Shown here: positions 6,001 through 15,000 of the stretch, piece by piece
How the letters are laid out: each line of letters opens with the position of its first letter
How positions within the stretch are numbered: the first letter of the stretch is position 1
Source of the DNA: Escherichia coli
Lineage (GTDB): Bacteria; Pseudomonadota; Gammaproteobacteria; Enterobacterales; Enterobacteriaceae
Assembly: GCF_016026235.1 (NCBI RefSeq)
Contig: NZ_CP065613.1
Length of the DNA stretch: 64,000 bases
Direction: 5' to 3' (one strand)
Position numbers: made by a program

Positions 6001-9000
6001 CAGCGTCGAGTTACTCAATAAAAGCAGTTCCATTACTTCTCCGGTTAGTAAGAAATCACGGAAGGAATGCTACCACTGCGAATTTAACCACTTACTGACA
6101 TGGCTCACGATGTCACGTATTGCACAGGCGCTGAGACTGATGACAAACACAGCATTGCCTGATGCGCTACGCTTACCTGGCCTACCAGATAACTGCAATA
6201 TATTGAATTTTCAAAATTATGTAGACCGAATAAGGCTTCATTCCGCATCCGGCATAAACAATGTGCACTTTGCCACCAATTTGAGCGCCCCTTAAGGCGC
6301 TGATATTTTTTATGCTTCTCGTGCAAATTGTGCTGCTTCAGCAATCAGCAGCACATCCGGTCGCGAAGTTGCTGGTGCGACCAGCCAGCGACATGCAGAG
6401 TTGAGTAACGCGATTAATCATGGGAAATTGCCTCTGCATGAGTGAGCAGATATTGCTCCGCCTCACCGGACCAGATCCCCTGATGACGCGCCAGAATCGC
6501 CGCCAGTGCTTGATCCTTAATCTGCGTGAGTGACGTCAGCGGCAGGTATTTCCCGGTATACACCAGCTTTTTGCCGCCGCCGACGGCAGGCAATTCAAGC
6601 GTGGTTTCGCCCGCGGCATTCAGCCCAAGAATATGTGTTACCACTTTTGCGGCCTGCACTTTTTTCTCTTCGATCAGTTTGACCGCCGCGCGCATGTCGT
6701 CGGTATTGCCGCCTGACGTGCCCACGTAGTGGGTAAATGCATAATGCACATCGTAGAAATTAATTGGCGCGCTGAAATGTTTATCCTGCGGTCCGGCGAA
6801 GAAATTCAGGCAACCATCTGTCGCCAGCAAGGAAGAGGCGAGAGTCACCAGTCCTTCATTAGGCACAAAGACGAAAATATCATCGAAGCCGTGACCGCCA
6901 CTCAGCGCCATTAACGTATCAAATGCTGCATCGGTGGCATTGAGATAATGAATCAGTGTTTGCGGTTCTGATGGATAGTGCTTGCGCGCATAACTCAATT
7001 TATCGTTGTCGGTATCGGTAATGACGAGCAGCGACGGGTTAACTGGTCCATGCAGCGCATAATCAATCGCCAACAGTCCCATTGGTCCGGTGCCGCCGAG
7101 GATCAGCGTGCGCCCTTGCGGGCGAATCCCCATCGTGTGGTTATAACTACCTTCCTGAAGATGATAGTTGGCGTTGAACGCGCCAATCACGCAGGAAAGC
7201 GGTTCAACCAGTGAGCCTTCAAAATAGGTTTCGCCGTCGTATGCCAGCAGGCAATCTTGTTCCATGACCTCGTTGGGAATAACCACATGCGTGGCTTCGC
7301 CGCCCACCCACGGGAAGGAGTAGCCGGGGCAGTCCGGGCGGTCGGGGAGTTGCAGGTTGGCCTGAATCACATAACGCTGACCCGGCTGGAATTTGTGCTG
7401 CCACTTTTTACCCAAGGCCAGAATATCGCCGCAAAACTCGTGGCCGATGATGATGGGGTTGGTCGCCACATCGTCGGGTACTTTTTTATGGTTTTCACCC
7501 AGATTGGCCTCTTTCCAGGAAGAGAGGCACAGGCTGTCAGTGACCACCGTCGCGAGGATTTCATCCTCCTGCATTTCAGGAAGGTCAAAGGTTTCCAGGC
7601 GTAAATCACGTTTACCATAAAGACGCAGAGCTGTTGTTTTCATAAACCACCTCATGTTGAGCGATGGCCCCGGCAGTCGTGCCGGGGCGAAGAATCAGGA
7701 CAGGAAGCCCAGCGCATTACCGATAATCCCTAAGCCAAACAGGGCGAAAATCAGCCATACCGGGTTAATTTTTTTGTTGAGCAGACGAACCATAAGCAGC
7801 GTCAGACCGAGCGCCAGCAAACCAGGGCAAAGTTGGTCGAGAATGTTCTGCACGGTCATGGTGACGGTGGAGCCATCGGCGGCATGCGTTTGTGAAACCA
7901 CCAACGGTACGTTGATTGACGTCCATTTGGTGACCAGCACGCCCATCACAAACAGTCCGAGAATCGACGCGCCTTCGGTGAGTTTTTGCAGCACATTCCC
8001 GCCCATATCGCTGACGATATTCACCCCTTTGCGAAAGCCGAGCTGTAGGCCATACCACTTCATCGCCAGACGCACCGCATTGAAAATAAAGAAAAACAAA
8101 AGCGGGCCGAGGATGTTGCCAGAAAGTGCCAGAGATGCGCCGAGCGCAGCGGTAATCGGGCGCAGCGTTCCCCAAACCAGTGGATCGCCAACCCCTGCCA
8201 ATGGTCCCATCAGACCGACTTTGATGCCGTTAATGGTACCGTCATCAATTTCCGCGCCGTTGGCCCGCGCCTCTTCCATGGCGGCAGTGACGCCGATGAC
8301 CGGGCCACATACGGCTGGCGTGGTATTGAAGAACACCAGGTGTCGCCTGAGCGCCGCAACCTGATCCTCTTTTAATGGGTAAAGTCGCTTGATGGCGGGG
8401 ATCATGTCGTAGCAAAAGCCCAGCCCGTGAATACGTTCAAAGTTAAAGGACGCCTGTTGCAGGTTGGAGCGCAGAAACATGCTCACCAGATCGCTGCGTG
8501 TAATTTTTCTCTGTTCCATGATGGCTCCGTTAATCGTCAAGTTGGTCAAGGGCGGTGGAGGTGGTGGCCTGGGGTTGAGGTTCAGCTTTACGCCACTGTG
8601 GATTTAGCTGGATGTAGACCAGGGCCATGATCACGCCGACGCCACCGAACGCCAGCAGACTGAGATCGAGGTAGCCACCTGCGAGGAAACCGAGGAAAAA
8701 GAAAGGCATCAAATATTTCACGCCCATCATACGTAGCACCATGGCGTAACCGACCACCACGATAAAACCGCCAGCAATTTGCAGACCGCGCGTCACGAAT
8801 TCCGGTATCGCGCTCAGCATATTGCTCACCATATCGGCGCTGACGAACAGTGAGACAATCAGTGCCGGAATAGCAACGCGCAGCGCCTGCACGCCAAGCG
8901 CGGAGACATGCAGAATATCGAGAGTGCGAAACCGTGCTTCTTCCGCTGCTTTATCCGCCGCGTGCTGGAACACTACGGTGATGGTACGGGCAAACACAGT

Positions 9001-12000: not shown

Positions 12001-15000
12001 TAAGCAAGCGGCTGATGGTGGTGCGGTAAATACCCAGTTCGAGCGCGATTTGCGCCTGCGTCATATCCTGTTCGTAATAGAGTTGGGCAATCTTCACAAT
12101 CAAACGGATATCGTCACTGTTTTCCATTGCCGCCTCCTGGTTCTGCACATTTGTGCAAATACGCTTTCTCACCGCTTGATCTGATATAACCCCATCATGA
12201 GGGCCTTTCAAAGCGATTTTTCACTCTTTGCATGGGGAGAAATAGCGCTTTCTCTTGCACATTTGTTTCTCTGCGTAGTAGTCATCAGCACAGGTGTGCA
12301 GCGATTCGTAATATGTTGATTATCCTTATTTTGCCAGGCAAATTTGCATCGTACTTCCGGAGACACTTTTGTGATAAAAGGCGTGGCAGATCACATTTAA
12401 TTTCGACGTTGCCGCATAACCCTGTTTTTCCCCGCTAAGAGGTACGGTATATTCCGCGTTTTACAGGAGAATTTATGCTGCCCGACTCATCAGTCCGTTT
12501 AAATAAATACATCAGCGAAAGCGGAATTTGCTCACGCCGCGAAGCGGATCGCTATATCGAGCAAGGCAATGTGTTCCTTAATGGCAAGCGAGCCACCATT
12601 GGCGATCAGGTGAAACCCGGCGACATTGTGAAAGTAAACGGTCAGTTGATTGAGCCTCGGGAAGCCGAAGATTTGGTACTTATCGCCCTGAACAAGCCCG
12701 TCGGTATTGTCAGCACCACCGAAGATGGCGAGCGCGATAACATTGTCGATTTCGTTAACCACAGCAAACGCGTGTTCCCGATTGGCCGCCTGGATAAAGA
12801 CTCCCAGGGGCTGATTTTCCTCACCAATCACGGCGATCTGGTGAATAAGATCCTCCGTGCGGGTAACGATCATGAGAAAGAGTATCTGGTGACGGTAGAT
12901 AAACCGATTACCGATGAATTTATTCGTGGTATGGGGGCGGGAGTGCCGATCCTCGGGACGGTGACGAAAAAGTGCAAAGTCAAAAAAGAAACTCCGTTTG
13001 TCTTCCGCATTACCCTGGTGCAGGGGCTGAACCGTCAGATCCGTCGCATGTGCGAGCATTTCGGCTATGAAGTGAAAAAGCTGGAACGTACGCGCATTAT
13101 GAACGTCAGCTTAAGCGGCATTCCGCTGGGAGAATGGCGCGATTTAACCGACGACGAGCTTATCGATCTCTTTAAGCTCATCGAAAATTCCTCTTCCGAG
13201 GCAAAACCTAAAACGAAGGCCAAACCGAAAACGGCGGGCATCAAACGTCCAGTCGTTAAGATGGAAAAAACGGCGGAAAAAGGCGGTCGCCCGGCGTCCA
13301 ACGGTAAGCGTTTTACCTCGCCGGGGCGTAAAAAGAAGGGGCGCTAATCAGCGCCTGCCGCGCGTCGACGTATTTGCTGACCAGCTAAATGACGCTTCAG
13401 GATCCGGTTTATAAGCCTGCTTTTTCTTCAATTGGCGGGCTTTTTTTGCTTCAGCCTCACGCTCAACCATTAATTTATCGATGTAATCTTTCTTAATGCT
13501 GTTGGTTTCGGAGTTGGTCAATACGCGACCATGCGCAATCCGCGCCCGATCCAGCAGTGTTTTAAGTTCACGCTGCTCGCGTTCAGTCATCTCTTTTTGG
13601 GTAATACGGGGGAGTGCCATGATGGTGCCCTCAGTGAGCCAGAGAGTTCAGTATACGGGAATTCGTTTGCGAGCAGAACTGATAATATTCATTTTGCCTT
13701 CTCTTAACTATTTATCTCTTTCGATAATTAATTAGAGATGCAGATAAAAAAATTAAAGGCAATTATTCTCCGATAAAGACGCTGGTTAACAGAGTACAGG
13801 CTCGTTTATTGATGAGCATAGTGACAAGAAAATCAATACGGCCCGAAATATAGCTTCCAGGCCATACAGTATTTACTCAAACAAATTAAAATGCAGCTTC
13901 TGCACCACCTGCTCGGCATCTTCGCCGGGCACCAGGAAGCACAGGTTATGGCTGGATGCGCCATAACAAATCATGCGAATGTTGAACGGTTCCAGTACGC
14001 CGAATACCTCTTTGCCAACGCCGCAGGCTTTTGACAGGTCATTGCCAATCAACGCGACCAGCGCCAGACCTTCTTCTACTTCCACCCGGCACAGTGCGGA
14101 AAGCTCCATCAGCAGAGATTGCGTCAGCAACGTATCGCCAGTGGAGGTTGAACCCGTGGTATCAAGGGTTAATGCCACGCTCACTTCTGACGTGGTGATT
14201 AAGTCTACCGAAATATTATGCCGCGCGAGGATGCTGAAAACTTCCGCGAGGAAGCCGCGAGAATGCAGCATATTCAGGCTGTGCAAAGTGAGCAGAGTCT
14301 GATTGCGACGAAGCGCCAGCGCGCGGAACAGCGGCGGATTTTCAGTTTTATTGCACACCAGCGTACCACCTGCGCGTGGGTCTTTGCTGGAGCCGACAAA
14401 GACCGGGATATCGCTGCGTACTGCGGGTAGCAATGTTGCCGGATGCAGTACTTTTGCACCAAAAGTTGCCATCTCTGCTGCTTCGGCAAACGCGATTTCA
14501 TCAATGCGTTTTGCTGCGGAAACCACGCGTGGATCGGTGGTGTAGATGCCCGGGACGTCGGTCCAGATATCAACACGAGATGCGTGTAAAGCCTCCGCCA
14601 GCAAGGCTGCCGTATAATCGCTGCCTCCACGGCCAAGCGTCGTTGTACGACCTTTATTTTCGCTACCGATAAATCCCTGGGTGATCACTAAGCCTTCATT
14701 GAGGCGTGGGAGCAGCTGCAGCGCGGCCAGTTCCGCCAGCGCGGCTACATCTGGCTCTGCACGACCAAATCGGTCGTTGGTACGCATCACTTTACGTACA
14801 TCAAACCACTGTGCCTGAACATCGCGTTCGCGCAGGATCTCGACAAACAGCAGGGTCGACATCAGCTCGCCGTGGCTGACCAGTTCATCTGTCAGCGCCG
14901 GAGACGTTGCCAGCGCCGCCGCTTCTGCCAGAACAGTAATGTTCTCCAGCAGACGTTCAATCTCTTCACGGATAACGTTCGGGTAACGTAGACGTTCCAG

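Follow-up and report, generated by a model that had tools for sequence, protein, structure and literature searches.

The interval between pepE and rluF differs among strains of Escherichia coli, and the questions raised by this locus are what it encodes and whether some strains gained it or others lost it. We analyzed a 64,000-nucleotide stretch of E. coli DNA (NCBI RefSeq assembly GCF_016026235.1, contig NZ_CP065613.1), referred to below as the window. Our reading is that positions 6034-12474 hold the chromosomal L-sorbose operon sorCDFBAME, orthologous to the sor operon of Klebsiella pneumoniae, and that this operon is an ancestral resident of the site which K-12-like strains lack through loss. 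We assign this reading a probability of roughly 90%. Published work already covers the E. coli sor operon, what it does, the fact that K-12 lacks it and how it is enriched among extra-intestinal pathogenic lineages, and a study of 2025 surveyed tens of thousands of genomes, constructed knock-outs and a knock-in, and gave the phylogroup distribution (PMC12817954). The additions made here are modest: the proposal that sdhL is an ancestral eighth gene of which most E. coli keep a scar, the vertical residence of the operon across enteric genera, and the anatomy of its junctions.

Gene content and identity

The original prediction had placed a seven-gene sorbose operon between pepE and rluF, near metH, and the gene content bears this out. 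Seven intact, co-directional open reading frames (ORFs) on the minus strand, in the order sorC-D-F-B-A-M-E, occupy the whole of 6034-12474, which is the exact interval between the pepE and rluF start codons (ORF listing and RefSeq annotation). The metH gene lies at 5-3403, approximately 3 kb from the gap; Woodward and Charles reportedly mapped the sor genes of E. coli near metH in 1982. The seven genes and the two flanking core genes are as follows.

5344-6033, minus strand: pepE (dipeptidase E), left flanking core gene; NF003642 at 357 bits (cut-off 156), and RefSeq.
6414-7643, minus strand: sorE, L-sorbose-1-phosphate reductase; zinc-dependent alcohol dehydrogenase (Zn-ADH)/medium-chain dehydrogenase/reductase fold, GHE at residue 67, GTGPMG at residue 184; name from the PGAP annotation.
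7695-8519, minus strand: sorM, enzyme IID(Sor) of the phosphotransferase system (PTS); TIGR00828 at 472 bits (cut-off 292.75), and PF03613.
8530-9327, minus strand: sorA, PTS enzyme IIC(Sor); TIGR00822 at 426.6 bits (cut-off 339.85), and PF03609.
9393-9887, minus strand: sorB, PTS enzyme IIB(Sor); TIGR00854 above its cut-off, His15 within RIDDRLIHGQ.
9887-10294, minus strand: sorF, PTS enzyme IIA(Sor); TIGR00824 at 145.6 bits (cut-off 98.35), His9 within CAHG; overlaps sorB by 1 nt.
10304-11110, minus strand: sorD, D-glucitol-6-phosphate dehydrogenase of the short-chain dehydrogenase/reductase (SDR) type; NF004817 ('sorbitol-6-phosphate dehydrogenase') at 500.7 bits (cut-off 304).
11180-12127, minus strand: sorC, SorC-family regulator with a helix-turn-helix and a sugar-binding domain; PF04198 at 270 bits; 315 residues from the ATG at 12127, ribosome-binding site AGGAGG.
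12475-13347, plus strand: rluF, right flanking core gene; NF007784 at 605 bits (cut-off 318).

The gaps between the sor genes range from -1 to 69 nt, and a ribosome-binding site precedes every gene. None of the ORFs is marked as a pseudogene in RefSeq, and all catalytic motifs are kept, including TGxxxGxG at residue 15 and YAATK (YxxxK) at residue 161 of SorD. The products of sorF, sorB, sorA and sorM are the IIA, IIB, IIC and IID components of a mannose-family PTS on four separate polypeptides, each scoring above its curated cut-off.

Direct protein comparison with K. pneumoniae covered SorC and SorB. Across its full 315 residues, SorC shows 86.7% identity to its K. pneumoniae counterpart (PDB 2W48, E 1.9e-182), and SorB is 86.9% identical to IIB(Sor) (PDB 1NRZ, E 5.6e-91), the next-best IIB match being the far weaker ManX (E 1.9e-49). 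For the other five Sor proteins, the orthologues of strain CFT073 are 82-97% similar to those of K. pneumoniae (PMC2831201 Table 3). The proposed check, whether a different PTS would match better, came out in favor of the sorbose proteins, with ManX IIB and the Aga and ManXYZ models weaker. Over 5300-13400 the window is 100% identical to FDAARGOS_943 (NZ_CP065615) and 97-98.6% identical to other E. coli.

Gain or loss

Two alleles cover nearly the entire species. The sor operon is found at pepE-rluF in 2,865 of 5,426 complete E. coli genomes, and 2,557 (47%), which include K-12 and belong mostly to phylogroups A and B1, have a 211-bp spacer without it, which leaves only four genomes outside the two classes. 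The absence from K-12 and the strain variability that had been predicted therefore hold, and the comparison of the pepE-rluF junction across E. coli that had been proposed resolves into these two states. Between the edges that they share, the window has 6.3 kb and K-12 approximately 76-96 bp of unrelated sequence. A 126-bp probe from the empty spacer finds a match of at least 99% identity in 2,542 of the 2,557 empty-allele genomes, whereas sor+ alleles differ by 1.4-3%, like core genes, as would be expected if the empty allele were the younger state. In a survey of 44,208 genomes, the operon was found in >86% of every phylogroup except A (9.6%) and B1 (12.1%) (PMC12817954).

For the comparison across genera, one genome per species was scanned with PepE, and 10 kb on each side was examined. 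The arrangement rluF, sorC-D-F-B-A-M-E, pepE recurs in the same orientation in four further Escherichia lineages (Escherichia sp. MOD1-EC7003, E. whittamii, E. albertii and the divergent 'E. coli' SCPM-O-B-8794) and in five other genera, represented by three Pseudocitrobacter, several Citrobacter, four species of the Klebsiella oxytoca group, four Raoultella and two Enterobacter. The E. albertii contig is cut within sorA, and only sorA-sorM-sorE-pepE are found on it. At the nucleotide level, the sor genes have diverged from the window in step with metH, yjbB, pepE and rluF: identities are mostly 90-95% within Escherichia (range 86-95%) and 74-86% for Citrobacter, Klebsiella, Raoultella and Enterobacter, with 78-85% for the first three of these genera. 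The composition of the segment is not atypical (GC fraction 0.511, compared with 0.508 for the whole window). Because synteny extends across genera, divergence tracks the flanks and GC is normal, we consider the operon to have long resided at this site by vertical inheritance, and K-12 to have lost it.

The original prediction had described the segment as a strain-variable metabolic island. The variability stands; acquisition is less well supported, since synteny, co-divergence and GC all point to an ancestral operon lost by K-12-like strains. An island gained by the window lineage, with K-12 retaining the ancestral empty site, is unlikely. It would have to account for the same site and orientation in six genera, where the operon has diverged as much as its flanking genes, for the presence of the operon in E. 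albertii, E. whittamii and two cryptic Escherichia lineages, for the phylogroup distribution and the uniformity of the empty allele given above, and for normal GC without an integrase, a tRNA gene or a flanking direct repeat.

We propose that the sor+ and empty alleles are exchanged by ordinary homologous recombination in the conserved flanks, with no mobile-element machinery, which would explain why no mobile-element signature is seen. If the operon is ancestral, the question shifts from how it was gained to why phylogroups A and B1 do without it.

Several other arrangements were seen at the same site. Six loci from Citrobacter spp. and Superficieibacter hold 1.7-9 kb of other cargo in the rluF-pepE gap. 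In six Kluyvera loci, the interval contains just a SorC-like regulator (approximately 70% amino acid identity) and, after it, sdhL; the PTS genes, sorD and sorE are all missing. This could be a reduced sor locus or a separate SorC-sdhL module. In E. albertii and Escherichia sp. MOD1-EC7003, sorE gave only a partial tblastn match, and it may be disrupted in these two. Genes seem to have come and gone repeatedly in the rluF-pepE gap of Enterobacteriaceae.

Edges of the operon and its control region

The difference between the two alleles begins at approximately 6115-6128 on the pepE side and ends at 12439/12440 on the rluF side. The features at and near these edges are listed below.

6034-6128, no strand assigned: pepE upstream region common to both alleles; over 81 bp it is 97.5% identical to the K-12-type spacer, with the similarity lost by approximately 6128.
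6157-6254, no strand assigned: bacterial interspersed mosaic element (BIME), made of a repetitive extragenic palindromic (REP) unit at 6157-6185 (plus) and a degenerate inverted REP at 6222-6254 (minus).
6284-6301, no strand assigned: GC-rich hairpin AGCGCCCCTTAAGGCGCT, from the terminator scan and from alignment with strain JNEC-KY178.
12128-12439, no strand assigned: sor control region, defined by repeats and conserved blocks in the spacer alignment.
12440-12474, plus strand: rluF-proximal 35 bp common to sor+ and empty alleles, with the likely rluF -10 TATATT and Shine-Dalgarno sequence.

On the pepE side, a block running from ACATCGTGAGCCAT to GTGGTAGCAT upstream of pepE is kept across genera. 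The REP units that had been noticed at this junction are present; the one at 6157-6185 has two mismatches to the consensus, where 0 such matches are expected by chance. The inverted arms of the BIME lie at 6156-6166 and 6244-6254, and its degenerate partner REP is canonical in strain JNEC-KY178. In E. albertii, the REP/BIME sequence between sdhL and pepE is present in several tandem copies (locus L007, approximately 3580-4326; four blast segments against the single copy of the window). The hairpin AGCGCCCCTTAAGGCGCT stands directly 3' of the sdhL stop codon in sdhL+ strains. It is likely to mark the end of the operon transcript, although as a putative terminator it has a poor U-tract on the operon strand.

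The prediction that no integrase or insertion sequence (IS) is present also holds. None was found among the ORFs of 6034-12474, the ORF listing leaves no spare ORF, and there is no room for such an element because the only noncoding stretches are 380 bp and 347 bp long. Searches of 6034-12474 for tRNA genes and Rfam families found none, and neither microhomology nor direct repeats were found at the two edges of the 6.3-kb difference.

The sorC-rluF spacer was aligned for 12 sor+ loci from six genera. A palindrome, TGCACAAATGTGCA, at 12144-12157 in the 5' untranslated region of sorC, is nearly invariant, with one base differing in one of the 12 sequences, and related sites occur at 12255-12265, 12288-12299 and 12363-12374. 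We regard these palindromes as candidate SorC operators. A conserved, CRP-like TGTGA half-site at 12390-12398 may bind CRP. A further conserved block, GGGGTTATATCAGATCA, is a candidate for the -10 region of the sor promoter, which would comprise, on the minus strand, a -35 element TTGAAA at 12211-12206, a 17-nt spacer and a -10 element TATATC at 12188-12183.

Observations that weigh against the proposed reading

A number of observations count against the reading of an ancestral sorbose operon lost from K-12, and most of them concern the K-12-type spacer. Beside rluF, this spacer reads ...ACCTTTGGGTTGATAAAAAATAGTC..., which resembles Kluyvera, Citrobacter and Klebsiella more than it does any sor+ Escherichia allele, and it holds the ancestral motif GATAAAAAATAGTC near rluF, which is missing from all sor+ Escherichia alleles sampled. 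Near pepE it holds CTTTCCAGAA, where all sor+ Escherichia alleles have the BIME; CTTTCCAGAA is also found in Citrobacter and in Escherichia sp. E1V33, with one-substitution near-matches in Klebsiella and C. koseri. The sor+ Escherichia junctions have a diverged leader in place of the ancestral motif on one side and the BIME on the other. For the central ~45 nt of the K-12 spacer, nothing matched above shuffled controls. Since these ancestral junction motifs persist in the K-12 spacer but not in sor+ Escherichia alleles, the K-12 allele is not a simple one-step deletion of the present sor+ allele.

The second objection comes from Pseudocitrobacter. In three of its loci the sor genes show 87-94% identity to the window, against only 80-82% for pepE and yjbB, and the junction near rluF is also of the Escherichia type. 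A sor segment closer to Escherichia than its own flanks suggests some exchange of this segment between the two genera.

The remaining objections concern function. SorE matches generic Zn-ADH domains only (ADH_N at 29 bits against a cut-off of 23.5, ADH_zinc_N at 30.1, below 31.8), and the name L-sorbose-1-phosphate reductase is given to it by orthology. Growth on sorbose and induction by it are predicted for the window strain from orthologous E. coli operons. The putative operators and promoter are footprints of conservation, and a sigma-70 consensus scan called no promoter in the sorC-rluF spacer, the candidate -10 TATATC failing.

Some of these points are also what favors a horizontally gained island: the junction motifs that the K-12-type spacer shares with Citrobacter, Klebsiella and Kluyvera, and the unusually similar Pseudocitrobacter and Escherichia genes, which indicate that the segment can move between genera. 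To them can be added the rluF-pepE gaps of Salmonella, C. koseri and some Citrobacter, which contain no sor genes.

Other features of the spacer help to place the empty allele. Toward its two ends it matches sequence found upstream of rluF and of pepE in other genera, and the K-12-specific spacer has no match inside the sor segment or elsewhere in the window. We considered whether the empty allele could be part of a long foreign tract and rejected this, because the flanks beside the junction show no unusual divergence: the adjoining 400 bp contain 3 mismatches on the pepE side and approximately 6 on the rluF side. The sor-less Escherichia sp. E1V33 carries a different, independent deletion allele, in which a sor+-type rluF leader is followed by a ccdAB-like remnant (locus L005, 5260-5385) and then by the ancestral pepE upstream region. 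Deletions in the pepE-rluF spacer have occurred more than once.

The original prediction had found the mechanism of gain or loss not obvious. Flanking homologous recombination is sufficient to move the alleles. A tentative account, to which we give somewhat less than even odds and which draws on the ancestral motifs at both ends of the K-12 spacer, their replacement in sor+ Escherichia and the E1V33 allele, is that the ancestral operon comprised eight genes and that the sor+/sor- difference is an old presence/absence polymorphism, or an allele that came from outside, shuffled by recombination in the flanks, rather than a recent deletion in the ancestor of K-12.

An eighth gene, sdhL, and its scar

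Between sorE and the BIME, the window holds a scar of an eighth gene, which adds to the earlier reading of the locus.

6282-6421, minus strand: sdhL scar, from alignment to the intact sdhL of E. coli JNEC-KY178 (locus L084) and gap comparison.

Positions 6421-6364 are the first 58 nt of sdhL, whose ATG overlaps the sorE stop codon (ATGATTAA). Positions 6363-6282 comprise the 3' end of the gene (approximately 50 nt) and the hairpin, and 701 bp are missing at 6363/6364. A 27-codon remnant ORF runs from 6421 to 6338. An intact sdhL of 270 codons, located 3' of sorE and with its ATG overlapping the sorE stop codon, is present in every sor+ locus outside E. coli that extends past sorE. Within E. 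coli, it is intact in only 177 of the 5,426 genomes, and approximately 94% of sor+ E. coli are without it. The intact E. coli gene (L084, 1555-2367) scores 455.6 bits with NF009202 (cut-off 306) and matches HI0607 (PDB 1NPY) with E 1.7e-110, and its product belongs to the SdhL class of shikimate-dehydrogenase-like proteins.

In sequence type (ST) 648, sdhL is intact and induced by sorbose, and it has been seen as a peculiarity of that lineage (PMC12817954). We propose that sdhL is instead the ancestral eighth gene of the operon, not specific to ST648, and that most E. coli carry its scar. If this is correct, it would point to a sorbose-related or keto-sugar substrate for this orphan enzyme class, because sdhL is translationally coupled to sorE and induced by sorbose.

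One candidate reaction, the formation of L-sorbose from 5-ketofructose, was considered, since a 5-ketofructose reductase of the shikimate dehydrogenase family exists (PDB 7COK, E 2.8e-13), and is kept as a weak lead only. The Tatumella enzyme yields D-fructose, and a clostridial shikimate dehydrogenase homologue was inactive (PMC7954740). A keto-sugar role of SdhL is conceivable but unsupported.

Klebsiella michiganensis and Pseudocitrobacter (loci L016, approximately 9078-10000, and L035, approximately 9181-10000) have ORFs resembling the ccdA/ccdB toxin-antitoxin pair between sdhL and pepE, and ccdAB-like sequence occupies the same place in Citrobacter. The E1V33 spacer retains a remnant of this region.

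Pathway and function

The pathway described here is taken from the literature on orthologues, and the gene content comes from the present analysis. By analogy, L-sorbose would be taken up and phosphorylated to L-sorbose-1-phosphate by the SorF/SorB/SorA/SorM PTS, reduced to D-glucitol-6-phosphate by SorE, and oxidized by SorD to D-fructose-6-phosphate, which would enter glycolysis. SorC would repress the operon without sorbose and activate it in its presence, and the conserved TGCACA-N2-3-TGTGCA palindromes between sorC and rluF could be the sites of this action.

Published experiments on orthologous operons agree with such a pathway. The CFT073 operon c4981-c4987, once cloned, enabled DH5alpha to grow on L-sorbose (PMC2831201). 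Window positions 6384-6413 and 12446-12473 match the primers used for cloning with two mismatches and one mismatch, respectively, and the cloned fragment corresponds to 6384-12473. In ST131 and ST648, the seven sor genes are the genes most strongly induced by sorbose, deletion of sorE in ST131 abolishes growth on it, and a sor knock-in confers growth on an ST10 strain, although only after 48 h (PMC12817954). The operon is useful as a marker of the Sor+ phenotype.

It could be asked whether the operon is cryptic or impaired in the window strain, for example through the deletion of sdhL or through regulatory changes. The conservation of sdhL and its translational coupling to sorE in the other genera sampled would fit this, as would the slow growth of the knock-in strain. 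Nevertheless, we consider it quite improbable, because the ST131 operon, which is without sdhL, gives both growth and induction (PMC12817954), the CFT073-type operon, also without sdhL, gives growth from a clone that begins at 6384, inside the scar (PMC2831201), and the seven ORFs and all conserved blocks of the control region are intact in the window.

That the PTS and dehydrogenases serve another substrate (mannose, fructoselysine/glucoselysine or N-acetylgalactosamine), 'sorbose' being an annotation carry-over, is very improbable: the matching NCBIfam and Pfam models are indeed generic for mannose/fructose/sorbose, mannose-family transporters are often promiscuous, and a sorA-sorM deletion strain still grows on sorbose via other PTSs (PMC12817954), but SorC and SorB are 87% identical to the K. 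pneumoniae sorbose proteins, the genes follow exactly the K. pneumoniae order, the Aga and ManXYZ equivalog models stay below their cut-offs, and the CFT073 fragment alone confers growth on sorbose that, in ST131, is lost with sorE.

Neighboring features

In K-12-type strains, a 132-bp insert separates rluF from yjbD (locus L003, 3319-3450), whereas yjbD of the window (13348-13620, minus strand) directly adjoins rluF at 13347/13348 with no spacer. The insert has terminal inverted repeats TTAACGCCTCAGA...TCTCAGGCGTTGA and a boxC-like core CCCCTCGCCCCTTCGGG...GGGTGAGGGG, and it looks like a small element of the miniature inverted-repeat transposable element type. E. coli MB06173 has a 'slipin family protein' gene after yjbD (locus L002, 3592-4871), where the window has lysC; this is another variable spot near sor. 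A lysine riboswitch (RF00168, 99.5 bits) lies at 15314-15510 on the minus strand, upstream of lysC (13873-15222), and is expected and ordinary.

Comparison with known systems

The closest known system is the sor operon of K. pneumoniae, which has the same seven genes in the same order, a mannose-family enzyme II on four polypeptides, an SDR glucitol-6-phosphate dehydrogenase, a Zn-type reductase and a SorC regulator. Wehmeier and Lengeler are said to have reported on that operon in 1994. Its nucleotide identity to the E. coli operon is approximately 78% overall (PMC2831201), and it has been described by Sprenger & Lengeler 1984 and Wohrl et al. 1990. The Klebsiella loci compared here belong to the oxytoca group and not to K. 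pneumoniae sensu stricto. In these and in the sampled Raoultella loci sdhL is intact, whereas it is deleted in the window, and the Klebsiella oxytoca-group loci have ccdAB-like genes before pepE in addition.

The sor operons of CFT073, ST131 and ST648 occupy the same locus and have the same genes as the window, with allelic differences of 1.4-3%; B2 strains such as LF82 are 97.2% identical to the window over 8.1 kb. With respect to sdhL, the window is of the type described for ST131, which lacks the gene and has the scar, whereas the ST648 type keeps sdhL intact.

ManXYZ, the mannose PTS of E. coli, belongs to the same PTS family and has the same IIC and IID membrane architecture and a related IIB. 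It differs in that IIA and IIB are fused in ManX and that no reductase, dehydrogenase or SorC genes are linked to it. The sor proteins do not reach the ManX equivalog models (210.8 and 61.9 bits against a cut-off of 400), and with the AgaF, AgaW, AgaE and ManXYZ models as a whole they remain below the cut-offs.

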